Source of the DNA: Candidatus Komeilibacteria bacterium RIFOXYD1_FULL_37_29
Lineage (GTDB): Bacteria; Patescibacteriota; Patescibacteriia; UBA1558; GWA2-36-10
NCBI GenBank assembly: GCA_001818495.1
Contig: MHKS01000005.1
Span: 323,890-387,889, forward strand
Direction: 5' to 3'
Length of the DNA: 64,000 bases
Part shown: in pieces, positions 26,840-44,899 of the stretch
Layout of the letters: every line of letters starts with the position of its first letter
How positions within the stretch are numbered: position 1 is the first letter of the stretch
The notes under the pieces: generated by a model
Seen by the model: the letters and a program-made list of their open reading frames with translations, nothing else
Databases searched by the model: none
Told to the model about the DNA's origin: nothing
Translations under genes and position numbers: made by a program

Positions 26840-27982
26840 GTGAAAGTATTTGAAACGAAAATTTATCTAAGGTTTTTATCTTGGTTTATTGCCGTAGCTT
26901 TTTGGCCCTTAGCAGCCTTATTTAGTCTCATATATTTTTTTGACCCCATGTTGTTTAGATCGGTATTTTCTGAATCCAGAGATACCGTTTTATTTGTCAT
27001 TTTTGTATCTTTAGCGGTAGTTTTATTACTATCTTTACTAGCTACCAGACTATTATCTCAGTCAATTACTAAACCAATTAAAATATCGGTTTTGGAGTTA
27101 TCTAAAGTAGTGGATAATCTATTCAAAACTATTCAAAATCTCTCTGAGATAACCCAAAATAATAGTAGCCTATCGCAATCTTTATTAGCGAGCAGCCAGA
27201 CGCAACAAGACGGATTAAAGACCGGTAACAAAGCTGTCCTAGATATCGCCAAATCTTTAAACGAAGTAGCTCAAAAAACCAAATCGGCCTCAGTCAAAGC
27301 TCGTAACGTTGATAAATTGGCCGGTGAAAGTGACGAGAAATCAAAAGAAGCTCTGGATAGTTTGGTGGTAGTGAAGCAGCTTTTAACCGAAAATCAAAAA
27401 TTAAGTCAAGCCTTAGATAAATATGCTAGCGATGTCAAAGATGTGGCTGGTCGGGTGGTAGCTTTGGCGGAGACAGTCAAGTTTCTTAGTTTAAATGTTT
27501 CTATTGAAGCCAGCAAAAATTCTTTTAGTGAAGATTTTTCCGAATTGGTTTCTCAAATTAGGGAGTTAAATATTGTCAGTGAACAGGCTGCTAACGCCAT
27601 TGGAGCTTTGGCCTCTAAGATGCAAAAGCAAATTGAGCAATCAAAAGACAGTTCTGATTACCAATGGAAAGAGACCACCAAAACGATTAGTGTGGTCAGT
27701 CAAACTATTATGTTTTTGGGCAAAATTGCTGAAAATATGACCCAAATATCTCAAAATGTCCAAGTAATTGATCAAGAGGCTCAAGAAACCAAAAACGATG
27801 CTCAAGACATTAGTAACATGATCAAGAAATTGAGTTCGGAAGCCAAAGCTCTAGTTGGCAATGTCGATGTAGTGATGCATACGATCAATCGGCAGGTATC
27901 TATTACCAAAGCTTTAAATGTATCTTCATCAGCCCTTAATGCCGTTACTAAAACTCTTAACGATTTAGTAGGAGAAAAATAA
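26840..27982 (+). CDS. Divergent methyl-accepting chemotaxis protein (MCP)-like transducer with two N-terminal TM helices and no periplasmic sensor domain
   Basis: GTG start per the ORF track. Two TMs separated by ~15 aa. A cytoplasmic coiled coil with LSLNVSIEASKNS...FSELVSQIRELN resembles the MCP signalling tip LALNAAIEAAR...FAVVADEVRKLA. Confidence 0.5.
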   Translation: MKVFETKIYLRFLSWFIAVAFWPLAALFSLIYFFDPMLFRSVFSESRDTVLFVIFVSLAVVLLLSLLATRLLSQSITKPIKISVLELSKVVDNLFKTIQNLSEITQNNSSLSQSLLASSQTQQDGLKTGNKAVLDIAKSLNEVAQKTKSASVKARNVDKLAGESDEKSKEALDSLVVVKQLLTENQKLSQALDKYASDVKDVAGRVVALAETVKFLSLNVSIEASKNSFSEDFSELVSQIRELNIVSEQAANAIGALASKMQKQIEQSKDSSDYQWKETTKTISVVSQTIMFLGKIAENMTQISQNVQVIDQEAQETKNDAQDISNMIKKLSSEAKALVGNVDVVMHTINRQVSITKALNVSSSALNAVTKTLNDLVGEK

Positions 27983-27983
27983 T

Positions 27984-28406
27984 ATGGCAGTCAGAACAGA
28001 AAAGTTTATATTATTTTATCTTGGTGGAGAAAAATATGCCTTACCGGCTTTATCGGCTAATCAGTTTATTGAGTTTAGTGATTTAGCTTTGGTGCCCAAG
28101 GCCGATCAGGATATCAGGGGCTTGATTTATCATAACGGCAATATTATTACTATTATTGATTTGAAGAGAGTTTTAAAGATTGTATCACCAAAACGAGAAG
28201 CTTCTCACATGTGTCTTACTTTTGAATACGGTGGGTATTATTATGGTCTATTGGTTGATCAAGGTGATGAGACTTTAGCAGTCAAAAATATTTCCAGTGA
28301 TAGACAAAGGCCAGTGTTTAAAAGATATTTTACAACGCCGGATAAAAAAAGAATTTATATTTTGGATATTGAGGAAGTATTGTCCCAAATAAATATTTAT
28401 GATTAG
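27984..28406 (+). CDS. cheW: CheW-like coupling protein
   Basis: Single CheW domain (FILFYLGGEKYALPALSANQFIEF...IRGLIYHNGNIITIIDLKRVL); good RBS GGAGAAAAA. Confidence 0.7.
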   Translation: MAVRTEKFILFYLGGEKYALPALSANQFIEFSDLALVPKADQDIRGLIYHNGNIITIIDLKRVLKIVSPKREASHMCLTFEYGGYYYGLLVDQGDETLAVKNISSDRQRPVFKRYFTTPDKKRIYILDIEEVLSQINIYD

Positions 28407-29943
28407 TGAAAAATATAAAGATTTATATTTAAGTACGACTAAACAGCAGTTGAAGAAATTGTCGGATCTGTTGTTATATTTGGAGAAAAAGCCTAGCAAT
28501 CAGAATTTGATTGAAAATATTTTTCGTTTAATCCATTCTATGAAGGGAGCGGCGGCTACGATGGGCTATAAAAAAACCGTTGATCTTTTGCATGCTATGG
28601 AATCAGTGGTAGATGGAGCTTATCACAGGGATTTGATTATAGACAGTAAAATATTAAATTTATTTTTTGATACTTTTGGTGTTTTGCAAGAAAATTTTAA
28701 AAGTATTGATAAAAGCAGTCGGGAAATAGTTTTGAATAAACCTATTTTGGCTTTAAAAAATTCATTAGGTCAAAAGCAAAAAAATAAAAAGCCAAACCAG
28801 CCCAGAGAAAAACATATCTTAGGATCTTTGCCTAGCGTAGCTGAGGTCACAATATCGACAGAAAAATTAGATGCCGTCTCTAATTCATTGGATGATCTTT
28901 TGATCAATTTTATGAAAGCGAAAAATAAGGTCAAGGATCTAGGGGATGTGGAATTTTTGAAGATATACGCTGAAAATGATCAGGTTTTGTCCAGTTTGAG
29001 ACGACAGTTGGAAAAAATCAGGATAGTTTCATTAAAAGATGTTTTATCTTCTTTGCCATATTTAGCCAAGGAAATAGCTAGAAATGAAGGGAAAAAAGTA
29101 GAAATAATTATTCGTGATCACGATTTATCTTTGGATAAAGCTATCTTGGATGAGCTCATGGAGATACTTATTCAATTGATAAAAAATGCCGTATCCCATG
29201 GTATTTCTAAGCAGCAAAGCAATGGTAAGGTAGTGATAGATTTTTCATTGTTAGATGACCGGATGCATATTTTAGTTAGTGATAATGGGCAGGGTATTAA
29301 TTGGACGGAGGTGGCTGATTTAGCAGTCAAAAATAAGCTTATCACTCGCCAAAAATTAAAAACCATGTCCCCAGAAGAAAGGAAAAAGGTTATTTTTTAT
29401 GTGGGAGTTTCCAAAGCTCAGACTCTTAGCACAGTTTCTGGAAGGGGTGTGGGTTTGAGTTTAGTCAAGAATAAAATAAGTGAATTAAACGGTTCTATCA
29501 GTGTCAGTAGTTCTTTGGGCAAGGGTACTCAGTTTGCCATTGATTTACCCCAACCCCTATCTGTTTTTCGGGGGATGATTTTTGGAGTTTTGAATTATAA
29601 TTTTGCTTTGCCGTTGGATCACATTGAAAAATTAGTATATTTGGACGAGGTAAAAAATTTTTCTAAAGCCAAGATTTTTACTTATCAGAAAAAAAAGTAT
29701 GAGGTAGTTTCTGTTTTAAATATTTTAAATATCAAAAAATTTGAGCCTCTTTATAAATATGTAGCTTTGATACATTATCAGAATAAAAAATTTGCTTTGC
29801 CAATTTTTCGGCAAGTAGAGGAAGAGGAATTGGTCATGAAAAAAATACCATTGGTTTTAAAAAATAATAAACATATCAAAGGTGTAGCCGTTTCGTCTCA
29901 GGGGCAAGTAATATTAGTTTTAAATATAAGTAGTCTAATCTAA
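28399..29943 (+). CDS. cheA: CheA-like histidine kinase (HPt P1, HATPase_c with N/G1/G2 boxes, C-terminal CheW-like P5; no P2)
   Basis: HPt motif IHSMKGAAATMGY; N-box NAVSHGI; G1 DNGQGI; G2 GRGVGLS; C-terminal CheW-like domain. Confidence 0.75.
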   Translation: MISEKYKDLYLSTTKQQLKKLSDLLLYLEKKPSNQNLIENIFRLIHSMKGAAATMGYKKTVDLLHAMESVVDGAYHRDLIIDSKILNLFFDTFGVLQENFKSIDKSSREIVLNKPILALKNSLGQKQKNKKPNQPREKHILGSLPSVAEVTISTEKLDAVSNSLDDLLINFMKAKNKVKDLGDVEFLKIYAENDQVLSSLRRQLEKIRIVSLKDVLSSLPYLAKEIARNEGKKVEIIIRDHDLSLDKAILDELMEILIQLIKNAVSHGISKQQSNGKVVIDFSLLDDRMHILVSDNGQGINWTEVADLAVKNKLITRQKLKTMSPEERKKVIFYVGVSKAQTLSTVSGRGVGLSLVKNKISELNGSISVSSSLGKGTQFAIDLPQPLSVFRGMIFGVLNYNFALPLDHIEKLVYLDEVKNFSKAKIFTYQKKKYEVVSVLNILNIKKFEPLYKYVALIHYQNKKFALPIFRQVEEEELVMKKIPLVLKNNKHIKGVAVSSQGQVILVLNISSLI

Positions 29944-29948
29944 CAATT

Positions 29949-30428
29949 ATGGGAGATAAAAAAGCAAAAATTTTATTTGTCGACGACGATAATTTTCTCC
30001 GAAAAGTCTATAAAGCAGAACTTAGTGAGCAGGGCTATGATGTTATTTTAGCGGCTGATGGCGAGGAGGGTTTGGAAAAGGCCAAAATAGCTGATCCGGA
30101 TTTAATTATCTTAGATATGATTATGCCAAAAAAGAATGGTTTCGAAGTTTTGACTGAGCTACAAAATGACCACAATACTCAAAACATACCGGTTATTATA
30201 TTATCAAACCTCGGGCAGGAAGATGACATTAAAAAGGGTTTGGATTTGGGAGCGGTTGATTATTTGGTCAAAGACAATATCACCTTAACCACCATTGTAG
30301 AAAAAGTAAGTTTATATTTAAATTCTAAGACCAGATCCAAGGTAGCTAAAATGAAAAATAATCATTCCGAAAAAAAAGAAGACCAACCGGAAGTGAAGGA
30401 TGTGGATAAATCAAACTTAGTCTACTAA
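29949..30428 (+). CDS. cheY: CheY-like single-domain response regulator with a short acidic/basic C-terminal tail
   Basis: KILFVDDDNFLRKV...DLIILDMIMPKKNGFEVL...KGLDLGAVDYLVK: receiver-domain signature residues (DD, D, T, K) all present. Confidence 0.75.
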   Translation: MGDKKAKILFVDDDNFLRKVYKAELSEQGYDVILAADGEEGLEKAKIADPDLIILDMIMPKKNGFEVLTELQNDHNTQNIPVIILSNLGQEDDIKKGLDLGAVDYLVKDNITLTTIVEKVSLYLNSKTRSKVAKMKNNHSEKKEDQPEVKDVDKSNLVY

Positions 30429-30462: not shown

Positions 30463-32148
30463 ATGAGTATTATAAGTGATGAGAAAATTTATAAGATTAT
30501 TAGCAAAATCAGTTTGATTGAACCGAGTGTTTTGGATACGGCTTTGCAAACCGCCAAAGAAAAAAATGAAGATTTTGTAGATTTTTTAATAAAACAAGAA
30601 TTGATAAAATCTGATGAAATTGGCCAATTGATAGCCAATGACTTACATCTTAAATATGTTGACTTAAGTAAAGAAAAAATTGATTTGACGACACTTAATA
30701 CTATTCCAGAAATTGTCGCCCGTCGGCAGAAGCTCATAGTTTTTAAAAGAGATGAAGAGGGAGTAAAAGTAGCTATGGCGAATCCTTATGATTACGGCAT
30801 GATCAAAATGATTGAGAAAAAAGTTGGTGATCGGGTCTTCCCTTATTTTTCTACAGAGTATGATATCAACAATGCTTTTTCTTTTTATAGAAAATCAATT
30901 CAGCAAGAATACGCCGTCAATATCCAGAAGCATGCTATCAAGGCCCAGGGCACAAACGTAGAGTCTGTGCCAGTAGTCAAACTGGTTGATGATGTTTTTT
31001 CTTATGCTTATACCAATCATGCCTCCGATATACACATTGAACCAGAGGATAAAGAAATAAAGATTCGTTTTCGAATAGATGGTCTATTATATGATGTTTT
31101 ATCTTTAAATAAAGCCATTTTGGAATTGATAGTGGCTAGAATAAAAATTTTAGCCAAACTCAGAACCGATGAAAGTCGGTCCGCTCAAGATGGTAAAATT
31201 ATTACTAGAGTTGAGGGAGAAAAAGTGGATATTCGTGTTTCTATTGTACCAGTTACGCACGGTGAAAAAATAGTTATGCGTCTTTTATCTTCCAAGGGAC
31301 GACAGTTTAGTTTGGAAGATTTGGGCATGAATGAACGTGATTTAAAAATAGTTAAAAAAGCGTCCAGTCGACCCTATGGTATGATCTTATCCACTGGACC
31401 AACTGGTTCTGGTAAAACTACTACCCTTTATGCTTTGATCAAACTTTTAAATAATCGTAACATAAATATTTGTACTATTGAGGATCCAGTGGAATATGAT
31501 TTGGAAGGAGTAAATCAGATACAAGTAAATACTGCTACCAATCTTACTTTTGCCCAGGGGCTGAGGTCTTTGCTTCGTCAGGATCCGGACATCATCATGG
31601 TCGGAGAAATTAGAGACGAAGAGACCGCTGGCATTGCTGTCAATTCTGCTATGACTGGACATTTGGTATTATCTACTCTACATACCAACGACGCGGCTAC
31701 TTCTTTGCCTCGTCTTTTGGATATGAAAATCGAGCCGTTTCTGGTAGCCTCAACTGTTAATGTAATCATTGCTCAAAGATTATTGCGCAAAATTTGTATG
31801 AAATGTATTGTCTCTTATACTTTGACTGATCGAGAGTTGGAAGATTTAAAAACGGAAGTCGAGATTAGTCAGTTTTTAGATGTGAATAAAATCAGTGATA
31901 TTCGTTTTTATAAAGGTAAGGGTTGTAAATCTTGCAATAATAGCGGCTATAGCGGTCGGGTAGGTATTTTTGAAGTATTGGAAGTGAGTGACGATATAAA
32001 AGAGCTGATTTTGGCCAGAGCCAACAATGAACAGATCAAGAAAAAAGCTATGGCCAGTGGTATGACCAGTATGTTTGAAGATGGCTTTGAAAAAGCTGTC
32101 TCAGGAAAAACAACTTTAGAAGAAATATTTAGAGTTACTAAACAATAA
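30463..32148 (+). CDS. pilB: Type IV pilus assembly ATPase PilB (GspE family)
   Basis: N-terminal GSPII_E_N domain; Walker A GPTGSGKTTT; Asp and His boxes; tetracysteine CMKC...CKSC zinc motif. Confidence 0.85.
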   Translation: MSIISDEKIYKIISKISLIEPSVLDTALQTAKEKNEDFVDFLIKQELIKSDEIGQLIANDLHLKYVDLSKEKIDLTTLNTIPEIVARRQKLIVFKRDEEGVKVAMANPYDYGMIKMIEKKVGDRVFPYFSTEYDINNAFSFYRKSIQQEYAVNIQKHAIKAQGTNVESVPVVKLVDDVFSYAYTNHASDIHIEPEDKEIKIRFRIDGLLYDVLSLNKAILELIVARIKILAKLRTDESRSAQDGKIITRVEGEKVDIRVSIVPVTHGEKIVMRLLSSKGRQFSLEDLGMNERDLKIVKKASSRPYGMILSTGPTGSGKTTTLYALIKLLNNRNINICTIEDPVEYDLEGVNQIQVNTATNLTFAQGLRSLLRQDPDIIMVGEIRDEETAGIAVNSAMTGHLVLSTLHTNDAATSLPRLLDMKIEPFLVASTVNVIIAQRLLRKICMKCIVSYTLTDRELEDLKTEVEISQFLDVNKISDIRFYKGKGCKSCNNSGYSGRVGIFEVLEVSDDIKELILARANNEQIKKKAMASGMTSMFEDGFEKAVSGKTTLEEIFRVTKQ

Positions 32149-32152
32149 AAAT

Positions 32153-33370
32153 ATGTTATTTGCTTATAAAATTTCTGATGCTAAGAATAAAATAACTCAA
32201 GGAACCATTGAGGCGCCCAGTCGTGCCCAAGCCAGAAATCAGCTGATTTTAAAAGATGGAGCTTTAATATCTTTGGAACCAATCAGTCATAGAAAATCAA
32301 ATAATAATTTAGCCGGAAAGCAATTTTCATTGAGTAGAGTCAAGCTTTTAGAAAGAGTGATGTTTGCCAAACATTTGGCGGTCATGATAAAAGCTGGTAT
32401 GTCTATTGATAGTTCCATTGAGACACTAAGCGACAATTCTTCTCCAGCTATGTCTAGAGTTTTATTTGGTATTTTAAATGATGTGCGCACAGGTAATTCT
32501 TTTTCTTCAGCTTTGAGTAAATATAAACGGGATTTTGATTTATTGTTTATCAATATGGTGGCGGCTGGAGAAAAGGGTGGTAATTTAGCAAAAAATCTAA
32601 ATCTTTTAGCTATTCAACAGCAAAAAACTTATGAGCTTCGTAAAAAAATAAAATCAGCCTCTATTTATCCGACAGTTATAGCTTTGGCTATAGTCGGTCT
32701 AACGGCCGTAGTATCAAAATTTGTTTTACCAAAGATTGTGAATTTTTTTAGTAGCTTAAATGTTGAATTACCGTGGAGCACCAGAATATTAATAATGACT
32801 GCTCAGTTTTTTAGTACTTATTGGTTGTGGGTGGTAGTAATAGCGTTGGTTTTAGTAATTATTTGGGTAACCATGCTTAGGTTTACTGCTGGGCGCTTAA
32901 TCATACACGCTTTTATATTAAGATTGCCAATTTTAGGAAAATTGATATCTAATATGAACCTGGCTTTATTTTGTCGGACTTTGGCTAGTCTTTTAAATAG
33001 TGGTATTACCATTGATCAAGGGCTCCAAATTGTTTCCCAAACAATGACCAGTGAGGTTTATAAACAGCAAACTATACAGGTTTATTATCGTGTTTTAAAA
33101 GGAAATTCTTTGGCTAATTCTATTTCCAACAAAAGATATTTTCCCAGCATTGTTTCCCGTATGAGTATGGTGGGTGAAGAATCCGGTAATTTGAGTGAAG
33201 TATTGGATCATTTGGCAGATTTTTATGAACTAGAAGTGGACAATACTACTAAAAATCTTTCTAGTATGTTGGAGCCAGTACTACTAGTAGTTATTGGTTT
33301 GGCGGTTGGTTTTGTGGCTATGTCTATCATCAATCCTATTTATGATCTAACCAGTAAAATTAGTCCTTAG
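32153..33370 (+). CDS. pilC: Type IV pilus inner-membrane platform protein PilC (GspF family)
   Basis: Two T2SSF repeats and 3-4 TM helices; characteristic ...MVAAGEKGGNL... motif. Confidence 0.8.
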   Translation: MLFAYKISDAKNKITQGTIEAPSRAQARNQLILKDGALISLEPISHRKSNNNLAGKQFSLSRVKLLERVMFAKHLAVMIKAGMSIDSSIETLSDNSSPAMSRVLFGILNDVRTGNSFSSALSKYKRDFDLLFINMVAAGEKGGNLAKNLNLLAIQQQKTYELRKKIKSASIYPTVIALAIVGLTAVVSKFVLPKIVNFFSSLNVELPWSTRILIMTAQFFSTYWLWVVVIALVLVIIWVTMLRFTAGRLIIHAFILRLPILGKLISNMNLALFCRTLASLLNSGITIDQGLQIVSQTMTSEVYKQQTIQVYYRVLKGNSLANSISNKRYFPSIVSRMSMVGEESGNLSEVLDHLADFYELEVDNTTKNLSSMLEPVLLVVIGLAVGFVAMSIINPIYDLTSKISP

Positions 33371-34450
33371 ATGATCAGCTATAAAAAACAATTTGGCTTT
33401 ACTTTATTGGAAGTTTTGTTAATGGTCACTATTTTTGCTATTATTTTGTCTTATTCTTTTTCTTTGTCCAATAGCCAGATTTTTGAAGATGATTTGCACG
33501 CTAAGGTATTAGAAGTATCTGATTTGATAGAAAAAGCTAGAAATAATTCAGCCACCGGTTATCGCGGTGATGTCTGGAGCATCAAAGTGTTGGATAGTGA
33601 TGCCTTGTGTGATAATAGTGGTGATTGTATTTTGCTTTTTAAGGGTAATGATTTTAGTGGTCGAGATGCTATCTATGATTATTTTGTCCAATTTGATCAG
33701 AGTATCACTGGAGTTTATATAAATTCTGATCAGGAAAATGAATTTTATTTTGATTATAGTTCTGGTTGGCTGGCCACTACGACCGCATCTTCTTTGGAAC
33801 AACAATATATTATCTTCAATAATAATGCCGGAGATTCACAATCATTAGTAGTTTCTCCCAGCGGTGCAGTAAATACTTTTGTTTGTGGTGAAGATCAGGT
33901 TTTTGATATTAGTGGTCATGGTTATAATACTGTTAAAATCGGTAGTGATTGTTGGATGGCGGAAAATCTTAACACTGGTGAGATGATTGCCAGTGTCAGT
34001 ACCAGTCCCACCAATGATGGTGATATAGAAAAATGGTGTTATGCTGATTCGTCTGCCAATTGCGATATTTATGGTGGTCTCTATGCTTGGGATGAAGCAA
34101 TGAGCTATGTTACTACGGCTGGAGTCCAAGGCATTTGTCCCAATGGCTGGCATATACCCACTACTTCGGAAGTGAATTTGCTGGATAATTTTTATTCAGC
34201 CAATAATTTAAAAATTGGTGGTAACTCTGGTTTTGATCTTATGGCCGCCGGTGTGAGATTGGAATCATCTCCAGATGTCTATGGTAATATAGACGGCACG
34301 AGCGGTGACGGTGGATCTCTGTGGAGCTCCAATCAAAATGGCAGTAGTGAAGCTTATTATTATTGGTCAGAGGAAAATTTGAGTAATCTGGATCAATTTA
34401 GTGTTGATAAAGATTATGGTTTTAGTATTCGTTGCGTAAAAGATTATTAA
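33371..34450 (+). CDS. Prepilin-type protein (G|FTLLEVLL class III signal) with a C-terminal Fibrobacter-succinogenes-major-paralogous (Fib_succ_major, TIGR02145-like) domain
   Basis: N-terminal KKQFGFTLLEVLLMVTIFAIIL with Glu at +5; C-terminal motifs CWMAENLN, YGGLYAWDEA, GICPNGWHIPT and GFSIRCVKD match the Fib_succ_major signature. Confidence 0.6.
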   Translation: MISYKKQFGFTLLEVLLMVTIFAIILSYSFSLSNSQIFEDDLHAKVLEVSDLIEKARNNSATGYRGDVWSIKVLDSDALCDNSGDCILLFKGNDFSGRDAIYDYFVQFDQSITGVYINSDQENEFYFDYSSGWLATTTASSLEQQYIIFNNNAGDSQSLVVSPSGAVNTFVCGEDQVFDISGHGYNTVKIGSDCWMAENLNTGEMIASVSTSPTNDGDIEKWCYADSSANCDIYGGLYAWDEAMSYVTTAGVQGICPNGWHIPTTSEVNLLDNFYSANNLKIGGNSGFDLMAAGVRLESSPDVYGNIDGTSGDGGSLWSSNQNGSSEAYYYWSEENLSNLDQFSVDKDYGFSIRCVKDY

Positions 34451-34451
34451 A

Positions 34452-35369
34452 ATGTTTAAAATAATATTTAATAAAAATGGTTTTTCACTGGTTGAAGTAT
34501 TGGTGGCCTTGGGTATTTTTGCTGTATTAGCGGCCGGAATTTTTAATATTGTGACCAGCTCTTATAAAAATTTTTATGGTAAAGGCGACAAACAATCTTT
34601 GACACAATTTGCTCAGGAGGGCATAGAAGCGGTTCGCTCTATCCGTGATAATTCTTGGCAGGAAATAGAAAGCGTCGCCGGAGCAGGCAATAAAGGTTTG
34701 GTTAAAACCGATGGCTATTGGAGATTTAGCGGTACTAGTAATACTTTGAGTGCTTTGACTAGAGTAGTAGCCATTACCAATGCCCAGCGCAGTAGCGATA
34801 GTCAGATAGTGACTTCTGGTGGTACTACTGATCCCAATACTAAAAAAGTTACAGTCACAGTATCAAGTACCGGTATTGATGATTATGTTTTGGAAACTTA
34901 TTTGACTAACTGGTCTTATAAAACTTGGATACAGACTGATTGGTCGGGAGTGGGGGCTAGAGAATTTTGGTCAAACTCAGCTATGGCTTCTTCTTCTTAT
35001 AGCAATATCGCTACTTCCACTGGGCAGATAACAGTTACAAGCACCGCCAGCGTCTATGAGCCTACGGCCTATATTTATTCTTCTATTTACAGTATAGAGT
35101 CTGATGATCGGGAACTAAGAAGCGTTGAGGTAGAGCAAAATGTACCAGCTGGTTGTAGTCTGCAAATTACCGTTGAAGCTAGTAATACTACAAATATGGC
35201 TAGCGCTAGCAGTCAAGTTTTTAGTGACACTTCAGCTGGGTATTATGTCAGTTCTACTCCCACTAGTTTAAATGGTAAAAAGTTTTTGAGATATAAGCTA
35301 GATTTGACTTCTTGTAGCAGTCAAAGTGAGGCACCTATATTTTATTCTTTAAGTATTAATTATCGATGA
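34452..35369 (+). CDS. Prepilin-type minor pilin (G|FSLVEVLV), Ser/Thr-rich
   Basis: Class III signal peptide and hydrophobic alpha1 helix; globular domain rich in S/T. Confidence 0.55.
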   Translation: MFKIIFNKNGFSLVEVLVALGIFAVLAAGIFNIVTSSYKNFYGKGDKQSLTQFAQEGIEAVRSIRDNSWQEIESVAGAGNKGLVKTDGYWRFSGTSNTLSALTRVVAITNAQRSSDSQIVTSGGTTDPNTKKVTVTVSSTGIDDYVLETYLTNWSYKTWIQTDWSGVGAREFWSNSAMASSSYSNIATSTGQITVTSTASVYEPTAYIYSSIYSIESDDRELRSVEVEQNVPAGCSLQITVEASNTTNMASASSQVFSDTSAGYYVSSTPTSLNGKKFLRYKLDLTSCSSQSEAPIFYSLSINYR

Positions 35370-36652
35370 TGACTTTAAATAAAAAGGGTTTTTCTTTGGT
35401 GGAGGCCATAATCTATTTGGCTATCGTTGGTATTTTACTAACGGCGGTGATCAGTTTGCATTTGACGCTAGGAGGAACGTCTAGCAAGTTGGTCAACAAT
35501 ATTTTAGCTTCCCGCAACAGGCGTGTGTCTATGGGAGCAATGAACTATTTAGTCAAAAATTCTGATGGCTTATTGAAAGATTTGTCTGGTGATTGTTCAT
35601 CATTTGGAGCTACTCCGCCGGTTTTGGCTTTATATTTTGAGGATGATAATCATTTGCCAGGTACTTGCGTCGAAAGTGGCGGTGGAGTCAGGATAGCAGT
35701 GGCGGATAAAAAAATATCTTTAACTTGCTATCCTAATATGTCTGGTAATGGTTATTATCAAAATTGTTCTACCAGTGTTTATCCAGCCGGCAATGTTTAT
35801 TATCTTAGTTCAGACGATGTAGCAGTTTTAAATAATTCACTAGCCTTTTCTACTTCCACTTCTAGTTCTACAGCCAATAATTTTTTGGCCTTGACCACTC
35901 ATTTAAGTGTTGGTACCTTTGCTGGTCAGCAGGCACGTTTGACAGCTACCTCCACGGCTACTTCAACGGTTATTTTGCGTAATGAAGAAGCTAGTGGGCT
36001 GATCAGCTGGTACAAAATGGATGCCAGTCCAGGTTACACAGTAGATTCTAAGGGTCCAAATAACTTACAATGTGCCGGTGGGTCTGGTGTAACTGGTTTA
36101 ATAAATGGTAGTACCAACGCTTTTGATTTTGAAGCCAGCTCCGGTGATCCAGCGTGTTTTGATGTTAGTCCGCAATCATTTTATTTTAATAATGCTTTTA
36201 CTATTACGGCTTGGGTCAAAGAAGAAAGCAGCGGTGTGGATAGGCAAATACTGGGTATCTCAGATTATACTAATCGCGGTTATTCTTTTTATATAGACAA
36301 TGCTTATCCGATGTTGCGTATCGGTGATAGTAGTACTTATACTGATTATAATGGCACTGGTACAGCCATGACCACTGCTACGGTCTATAATGTAGCAGCC
36401 ACCTATGATTTGAATAATAATAAAATAGTCCTTTATGTTTATCAAAACGGAATTGGTGGTGTAGCGACTACCACTTTTACTACGGCTGCTACCCTGACCA
36501 ATTCTTATAGTAGTTTGTTTATTAGTGATGATGCTTCTGAAACAGCTGGCACAGATGAAAATTTTGATGGAGTAATAGATGAAGTAAGGGTTTACAATCG
36601 TGCTCTGACACCTCAGGAAATTTGGGCTATCCAATCGCAGGGTGCTCCTTAG
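35366..36652 (+). CDS. Prepilin-type protein (G|FSLVEAII) with a C-terminal LamG/concanavalin-A-like (Laminin_G_3) lectin-fold domain; candidate pilus-tip adhesin
   Basis: C-terminal ...FDGVIDEVRVYNRALTPQEIWAIQSQ is the hallmark ending of Laminin_G_3 domains; the start overlaps the upstream stop (ATGA). Confidence 0.6.
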   Translation: MMTLNKKGFSLVEAIIYLAIVGILLTAVISLHLTLGGTSSKLVNNILASRNRRVSMGAMNYLVKNSDGLLKDLSGDCSSFGATPPVLALYFEDDNHLPGTCVESGGGVRIAVADKKISLTCYPNMSGNGYYQNCSTSVYPAGNVYYLSSDDVAVLNNSLAFSTSTSSSTANNFLALTTHLSVGTFAGQQARLTATSTATSTVILRNEEASGLISWYKMDASPGYTVDSKGPNNLQCAGGSGVTGLINGSTNAFDFEASSGDPACFDVSPQSFYFNNAFTITAWVKEESSGVDRQILGISDYTNRGYSFYIDNAYPMLRIGDSSTYTDYNGTGTAMTTATVYNVAATYDLNNNKIVLYVYQNGIGGVATTTFTTAATLTNSYSSLFISDDASETAGTDENFDGVIDEVRVYNRALTPQEIWAIQSQGAP

Positions 36653-36656
36653 TTAA

Positions 36657-37538
36657 TTGTTCGTAATTTGCTATAATATAGTTATGCTCATAAAAATCAA
36701 AGAGGCCTTTAATCTTTCTTACCAGCGCTCTAGCAGTGGTGCTGTGGCTTTGATTTTGGTGATTATGATTACGGCTTTGACCATAGTTTCAGCGGTAGTA
36801 ATTTCTATGGTCAATACCTCCAATCTTATGTCTGCTTATTATTTCAGTGAGGATGAAAAAACATCAGTTGATTTGGATGCTTGTTTAGAAGATGCCCTGT
36901 TTCGTTTAGCCTCCAGTACTACTGCTTCTGGTACTTATTATCTAAATGGAGCCGGAGTCAATTGTTATTATCAGATAGCTTCCTCTATTTCTGGTGGTCT
37001 GAAAACAGTTACCTCTACGGCTAGTAGTACTTCGGATATTGGTTATTGGGAAGATACTATTGTTATGCAAATCAATGTTTCTAGTAGTCCAATTAGTGTT
37101 TACTCTTATAAAAATTTTGACATGTCCTATGCTTCGATTGTTGAGGGTGGTAGTTGTACTGCTACCTGTGGTAATGGTGCGGTAGAATGTGATGAAGTTT
37201 GTGATGATAGCAATACGACTACCGAATCTTGTGGAAATGGTAGTACAGATGTAGGTAAATGTAATGCTGATTGTAGTGCAGTAGTACCAGACGAAGTTTG
37301 TGATGATGGCAATACCAACACCGAAGCTTGTGGTGATGGTGTCAAGCAAACTGGCGGGGCTATTTATTGCAACAGTACTTGCACGGCCGTAGTTACTAGA
37401 AACGAAGCTTGTGATTATACCGGTGCTGAAGAGCCAAGTGATCCGGGTTGTTATTATGGAGATGTTGGTTGCACTATTAGATATAATGGTTGTCGGAATA
37501 GTTGTACTGCTTGCGCTATGTGTGCGATTGAACTGTAA
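36657..37538 (+). CDS. PilX_N-like pseudopilin with tandem Myxococcus-type cysteine-rich repeats (C-x-CGNG/CGDG...ECDDGN...)
   Basis: N-terminal QRSSSGAVALILVIMITALTIV resembles PilX N-domains; the C-terminal half has three CG(N/D)G-x-ECD(D/E)(S/G)N repeats and ~20 Cys. The start may instead be the internal Met at ~36684. Confidence 0.5.
   Translation: MFVICYNIVMLIKIKEAFNLSYQRSSSGAVALILVIMITALTIVSAVVISMVNTSNLMSAYYFSEDEKTSVDLDACLEDALFRLASSTTASGTYYLNGAGVNCYYQIASSISGGLKTVTSTASSTSDIGYWEDTIVMQINVSSSPISVYSYKNFDMSYASIVEGGSCTATCGNGAVECDEVCDDSNTTTESCGNGSTDVGKCNADCSAVVPDEVCDDGNTNTEACGDGVKQTGGAIYCNSTCTAVVTRNEACDYTGAEEPSDPGCYYGDVGCTIRYNGCRNSCTACAMCAIEL
37130..37400 (+). repeat. Three imperfect ~54-60 nt tandem direct repeats inside the CDS, encoding the cysteine-rich repeats
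   Basis: gaagtttgtgatgatagcaat...tgtggaaatggt / gaagtttgtgatgatggcaatacc...tgtggtgatggt read directly. Confidence 0.5.
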
Positions 37539-40035: not shown

Positions 40036-41697
40036 ATGCTAAACAAGCTAAAAAGTAAGTGGTTTTGGATTATATTGGTTATTATAATCTTGGGGCTGAT
40101 AATTATTTTTCAAGTATTTAAGAAAGAAGAGTCCAATTATATAACCGAAAAAACTACTAGAGCTGATATTATTCAGACCGTAGAAGTAACCGGATCTGTG
40201 GAATCAGCCGAAGAAATAGACCTCAATTTCAATCGAGTAGGCACTTTGCAAAATGTATCTGTCACAGCTGGCCAAGCAGTAAAAAAAGGTGATATTTTAG
40301 CCAAGCTGATAGCTGGCGACGCTGCTTCTCAGGTAGCGGATGCTCGGGCTAGTTTGGAGATTGCTAAATTACAATTAGCTGAGCTGTTGGCCGGAGCCAG
40401 TAAGCAGGATGTGGAAGTAACCAAACAAGAGTTGATTAGCGCTCAAACGACTTATCAAACAGCTTTGGATGATTTATCTTATTTAGAGCAAACCAGAAAT
40501 CAGGAAATTACCAACATCAAAGCGGAGACTATCAATACTTTGAAGGACAAACTTTCTACCGCTCAATACTCCTTGGATTTGATTTTTGATGTGATTGATG
40601 ATCCAGACGCTGACAATTATCTTTATGTTAGTGATATAGTATTGCTCAATAATACTAGATGGAATTATCAGAGCACCAAGAGTGCTTTCGTCTCTTTGAA
40701 GGATCAGATTTTAGTAGCTGAAGTAGCCAATGATCAAACTAGCATTTTGACAGCATCTGATGAACTAGAAGATTATTTAGGTGAAGTTCTAGATATTTTA
40801 AATGATACTTTTGATGTGATGACGGTCACAATAGACAATTCTGTTTATACGGAGGCGGTGATTGCAGCTTTTAAGGCCGATATTAGTGCCAACACTACCA
40901 GTATTAATACAGCCATTTCAGCTGTCCAGACTGATAGTAGCAATTTGCGTACTAGAGATTTGTATTATCAGACTCAAATTACTGCCAAGCAAAATAGCAT
41001 TTCTTCTTATAAAATAGCTATGGATTTGGCACAGGCTCGGTTAGATTTAAAAATTGCTCCACCGAGAGATTTTGAAATTTCTACAGCTCAGGCCAATATC
41101 CAAAGGGCTCAAGCTACTCTTAATCGTTATTTGAGTGATTTGTCGGAGACGGCTATTGTTGCGCCAGTAGACGGTATAATAACCGAGGTCAATTTTGATG
41201 CTGGTGAGCAAACCTCGACTGCTAAACCAGCGATTTCTATGATTGGTATCAGCAACATGCAAATAGAAGTCAATGTTCCAGAATCTGATGTTATCAAGCT
41301 AGCGGTGGGTGATCAGGTAGAAATCACTTTGGACGCTTTTTCATCAGATGATAAATTTATTGGAACAGTTACTTTTATTGATCCAGCAGCCACAGATATT
41401 GATGGAGTCATTTATTATGCTACCAAAGTGTCTTTTAATGAAAAAGATGAACGTATTAAATCTGGTATGACCGCTGATCTAACCATCTCTACAGATAGTC
41501 GAGAGGATGTTTTGGTAGTGCCATCTCGAGCGGTTATTTATCGGGAAGATAAAAAATATGTTCAAGTGTTAAATGGGGAAATATTATCAGAAATAGAAGT
41601 CAGTACTGGTCTAAGAGGCGATGGTGGATTAACAGAGATTTTAAGTGGTTTAACAGAAGGAACGGAAGTAGTTACTTTTATAAAGGCTGAAAAATAA
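40036..41697 (+). CDS. HlyD/MacA/YknX-family periplasmic adaptor (membrane fusion protein)
   Basis: N-terminal TM anchor, long coiled-coil region, lipoyl/beta-barrel C-terminal (...VAPVDGIITEVNFDAGE...). Confidence 0.65.
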   Translation: MLNKLKSKWFWIILVIIILGLIIIFQVFKKEESNYITEKTTRADIIQTVEVTGSVESAEEIDLNFNRVGTLQNVSVTAGQAVKKGDILAKLIAGDAASQVADARASLEIAKLQLAELLAGASKQDVEVTKQELISAQTTYQTALDDLSYLEQTRNQEITNIKAETINTLKDKLSTAQYSLDLIFDVIDDPDADNYLYVSDIVLLNNTRWNYQSTKSAFVSLKDQILVAEVANDQTSILTASDELEDYLGEVLDILNDTFDVMTVTIDNSVYTEAVIAAFKADISANTTSINTAISAVQTDSSNLRTRDLYYQTQITAKQNSISSYKIAMDLAQARLDLKIAPPRDFEISTAQANIQRAQATLNRYLSDLSETAIVAPVDGIITEVNFDAGEQTSTAKPAISMIGISNMQIEVNVPESDVIKLAVGDQVEITLDAFSSDDKFIGTVTFIDPAATDIDGVIYYATKVSFNEKDERIKSGMTADLTISTDSREDVLVVPSRAVIYREDKKYVQVLNGEILSEIEVSTGLRGDGGLTEILSGLTEGTEVVTFIKAEK

Positions 41698-41699
41698 TT

Positions 41700-42410
41700 A
41701 TGATTGAGCTAAAGGATGTCCATAAAGATTTTATCAATGGTGATGTAGTCACCAAGGTGTTGCACGGCGTCAGTTTAAAGATAGGCCGGGGGGAATTTTT
41801 GGCTATCATGGGTCCTTCTGGTTCGGGTAAGTCAACCCTCATGCATATCTTGGGTTTTTTGGATACTCTAAGTAGCGGGCAGTATTTTTTTAATAATAAA
41901 GATGTTTCCAGCTTGGATGATGATACTTTAGCCCAGTATCGAAATAAAAAGGTGGGTTTTGTTTTTCAGAGTTTTAATTTATTGCCCAAAACAACTGTTT
42001 GGGAAAATGTCCGTTTGCCCCTTTTATATAGTAATGAAAAAATGGATTCACGGATTATTGATGAAGCTATTAAAAGTGTCGGTTTAGAGCATCGAAGAGA
42101 TCATCTGTCCAATCAGCTCTCTGGTGGTGAAAAACAACGCGTGGCTATTGCTCGAGCACTGGTTAATAAACCGGATATTATTTTTGCTGACGAGCCGACC
42201 GGTAATCTTGATTCTAAATCAGGCATTGCCATTATGTCTATTTTGGCCGAACTTTCCAAAGTCGGCAAAACTGTAGTTTTGGTTACTCACGAGTCTACCA
42301 CAGCTCGCTATGCCAATCGGATCATTACTATTAGAGATGGCTTGATTGTCGGTGATGATAAAAACACTAGTATTATCCGGACCGAGGAAATAAACGGCCA
42401 ATTAAAATAA
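41700..42410 (+). CDS. ABC transporter ATP-binding protein (MacB/LolD/YknY-like)
   Basis: Walker A GPSGSGKST; signature LSGGEKQRVAIARAL; Walker B IIFADEPTGNLD. Confidence 0.85.
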   Translation: MIELKDVHKDFINGDVVTKVLHGVSLKIGRGEFLAIMGPSGSGKSTLMHILGFLDTLSSGQYFFNNKDVSSLDDDTLAQYRNKKVGFVFQSFNLLPKTTVWENVRLPLLYSNEKMDSRIIDEAIKSVGLEHRRDHLSNQLSGGEKQRVAIARALVNKPDIIFADEPTGNLDSKSGIAIMSILAELSKVGKTVVLVTHESTTARYANRIITIRDGLIVGDDKNTSIIRTEEINGQLK

Positions 42411-42413
42411 TTT

Positions 42414-43655
42414 ATGCATCTCGATTTAAGAACATCGATGGGTGTTGTACAGGCATTGAAGCGTAATAAGATGCGCTCTTTTTTGACTTCCTTGGGGATT
42501 ATTATTGGTATTTCAGCGGTGGTTATTATTATGTCGGTTGGTGCGGGGGCTCACTCTTTGATTGCCAATGAAATCAATAGTATGGGCACTGATTTGATTG
42601 GTATTTTGCCGGGAGCCAGTGATGATGAAGGTCCACCAGCGTCAGTTATGGGCATAAATATTACTACCTTAACTTTGGATGATGCTCAGGCGATTGAAAA
42701 AGAAGTAGAAGAAATATCAGGAGCCACTGCTTATGCTCGGGGAGCTTGTAATATCAGTTGGCAGAATAAGACAGAGGATACTAGTTTTGTCGGCGTGACC
42801 GGCAATTACCCGCAAGTAGAATCAGGGGCAGAAGTGGCTCTTGGTCGTTTTATTAGTGAAGAAGAATCTACCCAGATTTCCAAATCAGTAGTTTTGGGTA
42901 GCAGTGTCTCAGAAGCGCTTTTTGGTACATCTAATCCGATAGACCAACGTGTCAAAATAAATAAAGAATCTTTTCGGGTAGTGGGTGTCATGAAAGAAAG
43001 GGGCTCGGCTGGTTTCCAAGATCAAGATGATCAGGTTTTTATGTCACTAATCACTGCTCAAAAATTAATGCTTGGTATCAGTCATGTTAGTATGATTAGA
43101 GCCAAGGTCATTGGCGATTCAGAGCTGGATTTTGTTGTAGAAAAAATAAAAAATGTTTTACGGGAACAGCATGATATTGATAATCCAGCGGAAGATGATT
43201 TTAGTGTCCGGTCACAGGAGCAGTCACTGGATACTTTGGAGAGTGTCACTGGTGCCTTAAATTATTTTTTAGCCATGGTGGCGGCTATTTCGCTTTTGGT
43301 GGGCGGTATTGGTATTATGAATATTATGTTGGTTTCGGTTTCAGAAAGCACTAAAGAGATTGGTCTAAGGAAAGCCGTGGGGGCTACGGCCAAAGATATT
43401 AGTAATCATTTCTTGATTCAGACAATTATGTTGACTTTTTTGGGGGGCATTGTCGGTATTTTAATTGGTGTTTTTGTGTCTCTGATGATTAGTATAGTAG
43501 TTAATTATTTGGGGTATAACTGGGATTATGTTATATCGTTATCTTCCATTTTAATAGCCGTTATTTTTACTTTATTAGTTGGACTTAGTTTTGGTTGGTA
43601 TCCAGCTAGAAAAGCGGCTCGTCTAGATCCGATTGAAGCTTTGCGTTACGAATAA
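42414..43655 (+). CDS. ABC transporter permease, FtsX/MacB-permease family
   Basis: TM1, a large extracytoplasmic MacB_PCD-like loop, then three C-terminal TMs of the FtsX fold. Confidence 0.75.
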   Translation: MHLDLRTSMGVVQALKRNKMRSFLTSLGIIIGISAVVIIMSVGAGAHSLIANEINSMGTDLIGILPGASDDEGPPASVMGINITTLTLDDAQAIEKEVEEISGATAYARGACNISWQNKTEDTSFVGVTGNYPQVESGAEVALGRFISEEESTQISKSVVLGSSVSEALFGTSNPIDQRVKINKESFRVVGVMKERGSAGFQDQDDQVFMSLITAQKLMLGISHVSMIRAKVIGDSELDFVVEKIKNVLREQHDIDNPAEDDFSVRSQEQSLDTLESVTGALNYFLAMVAAISLLVGGIGIMNIMLVSVSESTKEIGLRKAVGATAKDISNHFLIQTIMLTFLGGIVGILIGVFVSLMISIVVNYLGYNWDYVISLSSILIAVIFTLLVGLSFGWYPARKAARLDPIEALRYE

Positions 43656-43660
43656 TAAAT

Positions 43661-44899
43661 ATGCTGAGATTAATCAATGCGTTTCAAATTGCTATAAAAG
43701 CCCTGACTAAAAATAAGATCAGAACTTTTTTGACTGTTTTGGGAGTTTTGGTAGGTATTTCTTCAGTTACTATTATTATCTCAGCCGGTGATAGTGTCGA
43801 GCAGTTGATATTTAAGCAGGTAGAAAGTTTTGGTTCCAACTATATCCAAACGGAAGTGCGGGTGCCAAAAGGTAGTGGTGGAACTATGTCCCAAGCGCAG
43901 GGGGTAGTTATTAGTACTTTAAAAGAAAAAGATCGTCAGGATTTTTTGGAGCTAGAAAATATAGATAAAGCTTACGGAGCAGTCATGACCCAAGATGTCA
44001 TCAGTTGGCAAGGCGAGCTCAATAAGGTCATGATTTATGGAGTGGGAGCAGATTATATTGATATCGATACTACGGAAGTAGATCAGGGAAGATTTTATAC
44101 CGAAGAAGAAGATAATAGTCTAGCTAGGGTAATAGTTTTGGGTTCCAAGGTCAAAGAGGATCTTTTTGGCGCTAGCGAGGCGATTGGTCAAAATGTTAAA
44201 ATAAATAAAACTAGCTTTAGGGTGGTCGGAGTGGCCAAACCGCGGGGAACAATTTTTACTTTTGATTTGGACGACATAGTTTATGTTCCGGTCCAAACCG
44301 CCCAAAAAGTTTTGATGGGTATTGATTACTTGTCGTCTATTACTTCGCAGATGAATGATTCTAGTCAAGAGGATGAAACAGCCGAACAAATGCGTCAGAT
44401 TTTGAGAGAGAACCATGATATTGATGATCCGACTAAAGATGATTTTGAAGTAATGTCATCGGCCGATGCCAAGGAATTGATGGGTACTATTTTAGGAGGA
44501 GTGACTATTCTTTTGGTGGTCTTGGCTGGCTTATCTTTGATTGTCGGTGGGGTGGGTATTATGAATATTATGTATGCTACAGTAGCAGAAAGAACTTTTG
44601 AAATAGGCCTCAGAAAAGCTGTCGGAGCTAGCCCCCAAAGTATTTTAACGCAGTTTTTGTTAGAGGCTATTACGATTACTTCTTTGGGGGGATTTTTTGG
44701 CATAATTTTAGGCATTATGGTTATTTATTTGGTTTATTTGATAGCCAATTATTATAATATGGATTGGCCTTTTGCTTTGTCCTGGAGCGGTATTTTACTG
44801 GCTATAGGGTTTTCTGTGGCCGTCGGGCTTATTTTTGGTCTTTATCCAGCTAAAAAAGCAGCCAATCTAGACCCCATTACAGCCCTGAGGAAGGAATAA
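43661..44899 (+). CDS. Second ABC transporter permease, FtsX/MacB-permease family (paralogue of the preceding gene)
   Basis: Same architecture; ~35-40% identical blocks (e.g. GIGIMNIM..VS.ER..EIGLRKAVGA). Confidence 0.75.
   Translation: MLRLINAFQIAIKALTKNKIRTFLTVLGVLVGISSVTIIISAGDSVEQLIFKQVESFGSNYIQTEVRVPKGSGGTMSQAQGVVISTLKEKDRQDFLELENIDKAYGAVMTQDVISWQGELNKVMIYGVGADYIDIDTTEVDQGRFYTEEEDNSLARVIVLGSKVKEDLFGASEAIGQNVKINKTSFRVVGVAKPRGTIFTFDLDDIVYVPVQTAQKVLMGIDYLSSITSQMNDSSQEDETAEQMRQILRENHDIDDPTKDDFEVMSSADAKELMGTILGGVTILLVVLAGLSLIVGGVGIMNIMYATVAERTFEIGLRKAVGASPQSILTQFLLEAITITSLGGFFGIILGIMVIYLVYLIANYYNMDWPFALSWSGILLAIGFSVAVGLIFGLYPAKKAANLDPITALRKE

Follow-up and report, generated by a model that had tools for sequence, protein, structure and literature searches.

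An InterPro search for N_methyl pilins with extra domains has returned 264 architectures (Raynaud et al. 2021; PMC8179133), and these modular pilins are alike in combining an N-terminal pilin module and a class III signal peptide with a grafted, independently defined domain. For two modular minor pilins of Streptococcus sanguinis, PilB, which carries a vWA module, and PilC, which carries a ConA-like lectin module, adhesion and glycan binding have been shown experimentally (PMC8179133, PMC9934059), and in the Saccharibacteria strain TM7x deletion of PilX2 lowered host binding, the C-terminal domains of PilX1 and PilX2 being lectin-like (PMC11623550). Here we describe a gene at positions 33371-34450 of a 64,000-nucleotide stretch of contig MHKS01000005.1 (the window), assigned to Candidatus Komeilibacteria, which encodes a prepilin-like protein ending in a FISUMP (Fib_succ_major) module and which we refer to as the FISUMP pilin. 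Taken as a whole, we think it fairly probable that this protein is a bimodular, or modular, minor pilin from the type IV pilus of an ultrasmall bacterium of the Patescibacteria, and that it acts as a tip-proximal adhesin and binds a ligand on the surface of a host.

By its Pfam and NCBIfam matches the FISUMP pilin is a modular pilin in the sense of Raynaud et al. (2021), and its architecture is one that these authors list without studying it: IPR012902-IPR011871 is the fifth most frequent, with 40 proteins, and is classed as having 'no clear function' (PMC8179133, Dataset S1), the most frequent being the LamG pilin type, IPR012902-PF13385, with 229 proteins (PMC8179133). The latter type is also found at this locus, in a neighbouring pilin. 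Public annotations of the orthologues read either 'FISUMP domain-containing protein' or 'prepilin-type N-terminal cleavage/methylation domain-containing protein'. IPR011871 we take to be the InterPro entry for Fib_succ_major/TIGR02145. Modular pilins and the N_methyl plus Fib_succ_major architecture are thus already catalogued, and the gene is a conserved example of an uncharacterised architecture and not a new principle; what is added here is the assignment of the carrier to the FimU/GspH class, the recognition of a C-type-lectin-like fold in the module and the occurrence of bare, FISUMP-bearing and DUF2341-LamG-bearing forms in syntenic operons.

In common with S. sanguinis PilB and PilC, the FISUMP pilin is bimodular, a small pilin module being followed by a short linker and a putative binding module. 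It differs in that this module is C-type-lectin-like rather than vWA or ConA-like, while PilB and PilC are from Firmicutes and have host proteins and glycans as ligands. TM7x PilX1 (L-type-lectin-like) and PilX2 (beta-propeller) are likewise minor pilins of a Patescibacteria type IV pilus with lectin-like C-terminal domains, but their folds are different, their carrier is PilX-like instead of FimU/GspH-like and they come from Saccharibacteria rather than from a Parcubacteria-type group.

The two modules of the FISUMP pilin

The open reading frame (ORF) lies on the plus strand and encodes 359 residues; its ATG abuts the pilC stop codon (tagATG), and the second pilin gene starts one base past its own stop. 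The N terminus, MISYKKQFG/FTLLEVLLMV (the slash marks the predicted cleavage site), has a short basic leader with Gly at -1, Phe at +1 and Glu at +5. An earlier note on this DNA, made from the sequence, had read a class III prepilin leader here, and this is borne out by PF07963 (22.1 against a cut-off of 21.2) and TIGR02532 (16.7 against 16.3). Both pass narrowly, and the call is corroborated by the conservation of G9 and E14, by a modelled helix at residues 12-62, by the FimU/GspH-like fold and by the pilB-pilC-pilin-pilM operon. The protein therefore has the features that define a type IV pilin, namely a class III signal, a long N-terminal helix on a β-sheet globular domain and filament machinery encoded alongside.

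Residue conservation was assessed in an alignment of 27 sequences, 26 of them from the FISUMP pilin family and one a separate fusion (P0032). G9 (-1) is invariant, F+1 and E14 (+5) are at least 90% conserved, and the C80-C86 pair of the pilin module is nearly invariant across the family. Six cysteines of the FISUMP module (C172, C194, C223, C231, C256 and C355) are present in all 27 sequences, which is consistent with extracellular disulfides. The pilin module also contains a conserved YRGDVW motif (residues 64-69, positions 33560-33577) that includes an RGD tripeptide; since G63, D67, V68 and W69 are nearly invariant, the motif is probably structural.

Two AlphaFold2 models were built, one of the full protein on the family alignment (mean predicted local distance difference test, pLDDT, 81.6) and one of the C-terminal module on a broader FISUMP alignment (pLDDT 88.6, predicted template modelling score 0.87). 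In fold comparison the modelled globular pilin module is nearest to FimU, EpsH, GspH and FimT. Known members of the FimU, GspH (EpsH) and FimT families are single-module proteins of about 140-170 residues, whereas the FISUMP pilin is bimodular and scores far below the cut-offs of the NCBIfam equivalog models (PRK10506, 17.5 against 158; ComGD, 19.3 against 70), so that its pilin module, as modelled, is FimU/GspH-like in fold and position and not a member of the sequence family. In the type II secretion system and in type IVa pili, GspH and FimU link the tip priming complex to the major pilin.

The earlier note had also placed a Fib_succ_major domain of about 170 residues at the C terminus. Its presence is confirmed by matches to PF09603 (residues 188-357, E 1.5e-21, 78 bits against a gathering threshold of 33.9, covering profile positions 1-187 of 187) and TIGR02145 (FISUMP; E 1.3e-29, 104.1 bits against 41.65), while its length is closer to 190 residues (168-359). 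The motifs quoted for it are all in the translation, as CWMAENLN (194-201), YGGLYAWDEA (234-243), CPNGWHIPT (256-264) and GFSIRCVKD (350-358). The structure prediction and fold search that the note proposed as a check return a C-type-lectin-like fold, the fold common to bacterial and phage adhesin tips: the model lies nearest to the tips of InvE, invasin, intimin, TvpA, the Lcl C-terminal domain, Bd2740 and Mtd, with scores of 9.1 for Treponema TvpA, 8.9 for the Legionella Lcl C-terminal domain, 8.8 for the Bdellovibrio Bd2740 fibre tip, 6.9 for Bordetella phage Mtd, 6.6 for invasin and 6.2 for intimin. Dozens of animal C-type-lectin domains follow at 5.4-6.9, and TaqVP is a further structural neighbour. 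At the level of sequence, a profile search of the PDB with the broader FISUMP alignment gave no match even at E ≤ 10, and a search with the family alignment matched pilin N-terminal helices only; no solved structure is therefore a sequence relative of FISUMP, and the tips of Yersinia InvE/invasin D5, intimin, Lcl, Bd2740, Mtd and TvpA share the fold with no detectable sequence relationship (E ≤ 10). Several of these tips also function in trimeric form, whereas a pilin enters the filament as one subunit.

FGE-family enzymes, too, are found in the fold comparison, at 7-8, and the module could accordingly be read as an enzyme carried on the pilus, whether an FGE/EgtB-like oxidative domain or another catalytic one. 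We consider this highly improbable. At E ≤ 0.01 Pfam gives no match to FGE-sulfatase or to another enzyme family. The module is far shorter than such enzymes, some 125-138 residues aligning to targets that are 270-700 residues long; among small domains its nearest matches are adhesin tips; and Cys, Gly, Trp and Pro make up most of its invariant positions, a composition suggestive of a structural role.

The module is strongly acidic, with 27 Asp/Glu against 7 Lys/Arg (49 against 14 in the whole mature protein). This is the opposite of a DNA-binding surface and weighs against a competence pilus in which the H-class pilin would serve as DNA receptor, in the manner of Legionella FimT. Scores for ComGD (given above) and ComGE (28.1 against 49) are likewise far below the cut-offs, and the chemosensory module encoded upstream is easier to reconcile with regulated pilus dynamics than with a Com pilus, so that a role in DNA uptake appears very unlikely. 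The acidic composition bears on the comparison with Lcl as well. Ligand binding by Lcl is charge-based, and a mechanism of that kind therefore seems unlikely for the FISUMP module. Lcl itself binds glycosaminoglycans (PMC11162425), and the module is not a member of its C-terminal domain family, PF07603 (formerly DUF1566), for which it scores 18.8 bits against a gathering threshold of 34.9.

Among the orthologues, variability peaks at residues 291-349, with column entropies of 1.6-2.4 bits compared with about 1.0 elsewhere in the module, and the flanking GFSxRC C terminus is conserved. Diversity-generating retroelements (DGRs) are common in candidate phyla radiation bacteria, and were the gene a target of one, hypermutation of its lectin-like C-terminal region would alter which ligand it recognises, as with Mtd, TvpA and the Legionella LdtA class. 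The position of the most variable part near the C terminus, where it would correspond to the variable region of DGR-diversified C-type-lectin proteins, agrees with this, as does the presence of TvpA, Mtd and TaqVP among the structural neighbours, and one class of DGR variable regions consists of Fib_succ_major/DUF1566-type domains (PMC5758913). The earlier note's statement that the domain has no established function was for the same reason only partly accurate, some DGR targets being known to have a FISUMP-type domain as their variable domain of C-type-lectin type (PMC5758913). Nevertheless, no template-repeat-like copy was found in the window, either by blastn at word size 7 with the whole gene or by an adenine-tolerant ungapped scan with its 3′ half, and no reverse transcriptase domain was found by Pfam in the scanned ORFs of the window, which include nearly all those of at least 100 residues. 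In ten orthologous loci the last 330 nucleotides are unrepeated within about 10 kb, save for two short matches at chance level. A relative that is 99% identical (P0001) differs at three N-terminal residues only. The negative repeat scans of the window and the ten loci, together with the reverse transcriptase scan, largely refute a local DGR; even allowing for a remote one elsewhere in the genome, we see scarcely any prospect that a DGR acts on this gene.

Presence, absence and replacement of the module

A search of 5.8 billion proteins gave 559 FISUMP-containing matches, among which are at least 25 full-length orthologues (P0002-P0026) of 356-378 residues and 45-71% identity from Patescibacteria/Parcubacteria assemblies; P0001, a C-terminally truncated copy, is the 26th member of the family. 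The FISUMP pilin comes first among the pilins that follow pilB-pilC, both in the window and in two related loci (L001 and L003) and eight further species representatives of the Genome Taxonomy Database (GTDB), and the operon is syntenic in every relative examined. Conservation and synteny together indicate that the fusion is a conserved gene and not an artefact of assembly or frameshift.

The earlier note had suggested asking whether orthologous pilin operons carry different C-terminal modules, and they do. The comparison was anchored on PilC in 20 loci from GTDB species representatives, in which the first gene after pilC was compared with module hidden Markov models (HMMs); L003 comes from an earlier look-up outside this set. 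A FISUMP-bearing orthologous pilin (pilin module E 1e-65 to 1e-88) occupies this position in nine of the 20 loci (L004-L011 and L017), as it does in L003 and the window. A bare orthologous pilin of 159-176 residues (E 1e-45 to 1e-60) stands there in five (L012, L013, L014, L015 and L018), and in one (L016) the orthologous pilin, of 511 residues, has a DUF2341 plus LamG_3 extension in place of FISUMP. In a neighbour-joining tree of PilC, drawn without support values, the bare forms are basal and one bare pair is nested among the FISUMP forms, which hints that the module was gained and then lost in that pair. Records for L012, L018 and L021 are titled 'uncultured Gammaproteobacteria bacterium' and yet hold a Patescibacteria-type operon with a PilC 50-60% identical to that of the window; the titles are probably taxonomic mislabels or the result of binning errors.

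FISUMP has also been joined to pilins independently. In P0032 and P0079 it sits on a PulG-like scaffold that matches the N-terminal module of the FISUMP pilin family over the hydrophobic helix only, and P0032 (locus L024) is likewise followed by a LamG pilin. The second pilin of the operon varies in size, from 305-313 residues in three operons, the window included, to 643-1076 in the others (the loci compared include L003:11079-14159, L005:11291-14458 and L017:5822-9052), and two of the five long forms scanned against Pfam carry DUF2341 and/or LamG.

In five related genomes this operon has a bare pilin at that position, so the module is dispensable for assembly. It could, then, be a module without a ligand, serving a structural purpose in pilus priming or stability or protecting against phages or antibodies as a shield or decoy, and the finding that most single minor-pilin deletions in TM7x gave no phenotype (PMC11623550) would agree with this. 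Against it, the 190-residue module is strongly conserved, retaining its six invariant cysteines across 45-71% identity, has been grafted on two different pilin scaffolds and is replaceable by a lectin-type module. We argue that this conservation, repeated grafting and lectin replacement point to a selected surface function, and regard a module without a ligand as unlikely.

The pilus operon and its surroundings

The FISUMP pilin is the first of four pilin-like genes that directly follow pilB-pilC and precede pilM and a 164-residue pilin, in a compact cluster on one strand. Coordinates are collected in the table below. G+C content in the window is 31-42%, and its relatives are metagenome-assembled genomes labelled Patescibacteria, Parcubacteria or Komeilibacteria.

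Table. Features of the FISUMP pilin and of the pilus cluster (positions in the window)
Feature	Position	Strand	Evidence
Class III (prepilin) leader peptide, aa 1-9 (MISYKKQFG)	33371..33397	+	PF07963 and TIGR02532 above cut-offs; G9 invariant; predicted cleavage after G9
Mature N terminus F1-T-L-L-E5 and long α1 helix, aa 10-62, pilin polymerisation interface	33398..33556	+	AlphaFold2 helix 12-62; PDB profile matches
Globular pilin module, aa 63-167, FimU/GspH class, conserved C80-C86 pair	33557..33871	+	
FISUMP/Fib_succ_major module, aa 168-359, C-type-lectin-like fold, six invariant cysteines	33872..34447	+	
Most variable stretch among orthologues, aa 291-349, candidate ligand-contact loops	34241..34417	+	Column entropy
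MCP-CheW-CheA(Hpt/HATPase/CheW)-response regulator module, directly upstream of pilB	26840..30428	+	Same arrangement in L001 and L003
PilB-type assembly ATPase	30463..32148	+	PF00437 E 7.9e-132, and MshEN domain
PilC platform protein	32153..33370	+	PF00482, two copies, E 1.6e-55
Second pilin-like gene, 305 aa	34452..35369	+	N_methyl E 1e-07; weak ComGE and GspI matches, all below cut-off
Third pilin, second modular pilin, LamG/ConA-like lectin module	35366..36652	+	N_methyl and PF13385 E 6e-20
Fourth pilin-like ORF, hydrophobic N terminus without Glu+5, cysteine-rich C-terminal repeat region	36657..37538	+	Translation; syntenic ORFs of relatives 276-332 aa
PilM-like protein, 632 aa	37411..39309	+	PF11104 E 1.2e-31; PilM_2 match at residues 61-366 only
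Probable major pilin, 164 aa	39400..39894	+	N_methyl E 2.7e-09; similar-size pilin at same position in L001, L003, L008 and others

The MCP-CheW-CheA module that precedes pilB resembles a Chp-like system that would feed chemosensory signals into a Patescibacteria type IV pilus. Downstream of the FISUMP pilin, relatives have a pilin of similar size (420-444 residues) at the position of the third pilin, with LamG recorded for L001 and L003; a predicted tip complex would thus carry at least two lectin-type modules, FISUMP and the LamG of the third pilin. The fourth pilin-like ORF has no Pfam or NCBIfam matches and is GspK/PilX-like by position only. Its C-terminal 130 or so residues are cysteine-rich, with repeated CGNG, (E)VCDD and CGDG motifs that we presume to resemble the Myxococcus-type cysteine-rich repeats. 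Assignment of pilins 2-4 as GspI/J/K-like by HMM was tried and rejected, the matches spanning the N-terminal helix only and falling below cut-offs, so that such an assignment follows from gene order alone. The listed GTG start of the PilM-like ORF overlaps the upstream ORF by 128 nucleotides and the true start is therefore probably later; the C-terminal 270 or so residues may be a fused PilN/PilO-like part. Neither a PilT gene nor a prepilin peptidase (PilD-like) gene was found in the scanned ORFs of the 64-kb window.

Other gene groups lie on both sides of the cluster. Positions 100-26700, directly upstream, hold a large surface-glycan or teichoic-acid-like biosynthesis cluster with Wzy_C, five GT4 glycosyltransferases, a CDP-glycerol glycerophosphotransferase, Bac_transf, a flippase, an epimerase, AsnB and several methyltransferases. 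After the major pilin, an HlyD-like adaptor, an ABC ATPase and two MacB/FtsX permeases (40036-44899) are syntenic in L001 and L003, which may indicate a functional link to the pilus cluster. The hrcA-grpE-dnaK-dnaJ genes also lie downstream of the pilus cluster.

A putative adhesin near the pilus tip

Established here are the domain identities, both folds (as models), the operon position, the conservation and the presence, absence and replacement of the module on the same scaffold; from these, and by comparison with known systems, we infer processing, tip location, binding and biological role. We propose the following mechanism. A prepilin peptidase would cut off the nine-residue leader, and the FimU/GspH-class module (residues 10-167) would insert into the pilus via its hydrophobic α1 helix and join a priming complex with the products of the three adjacent pilin-like genes. 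If it behaves as GspH and FimU do, the pilin module would sit at the base of the tip complex, bridging it to the major pilin, and from this position the disulfide-stabilised FISUMP module (residues 168-359), which has no calcium motifs, would be exposed at or just below the pilus tip, in about one copy per filament. There it could bind the surface of another cell, most likely a cell-wall glycan or surface protein of a host bacterium, with the variable loops at residues 291-349 setting specificity and pilus dynamics turning ligand contact into attachment.

The suggestion in the earlier note that this is a minor pilin displaying a putative binding module is supported as far as computation can test it, and the analysis now supplies a FimU/GspH-class scaffold and a C-type-lectin-like module. 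Further support comes from the neighbouring third pilin, which bears a LamG lectin module, and from the independent grafting of FISUMP on PulG-like pilins. Several points weigh on the other side. An adhesin role for any FISUMP pilin is one that we infer by analogy, and the same superfold includes enzymes (FGE, EgtB and OvoA). Since GspH-class pilins lie at the base of the tip complex, the module may project sideways rather than apically. The lack of phenotype for most single minor-pilin deletions in TM7x, mentioned above, and the absence of a prepilin peptidase gene from the scanned ORFs also count here. Finally, the EPN, QPD and WND motifs were looked for in the FISUMP module sequence and are absent, so that it is not a canonical calcium-dependent carbohydrate-recognition domain and its ligand may be either a glycan or a protein. 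As modelled, it resembles instead the calcium-independent bacterial and phage members of the C-type-lectin-like fold; Bd2740 and Mtd have no calcium site, and it is their distal face that binds the partner cell (PMC10769870).

A more tentative extension of the adhesin pilin, which we put forward as a possibility and do not expect to hold in full, is that in this Patescibacteria clade the FimU/GspH-position pilin constitutes a swappable 'adaptor slot' that may be bare or filled by FISUMP or DUF2341 plus LamG, that jointly with the size-variable second pilin and the LamG-bearing third pilin it forms a multi-lectin tip, and that the modules of this tip and the loops at 291-349 decide to which host bacterium the episymbiont can attach. 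If this were true, the host range of uncultured Parcubacteria-type bacteria would be partly predictable from their pilin module repertoires.

Host recognition and attachment of uncultured Patescibacteria are largely unknown, and the functional pilin evidence that we found comes from Saccharibacteria only (PMC11623550). This locus is a clear, conserved example from another, Parcubacteria-type lineage, with a defined scaffold and a C-type-lectin-like module free of calcium motifs. The bare and module-swapped orthologues in otherwise identical operons are natural controls, residues 168-359 offer a concrete protein for binding assays, and together they give a basis for relating pilin modules to host range by comparison.

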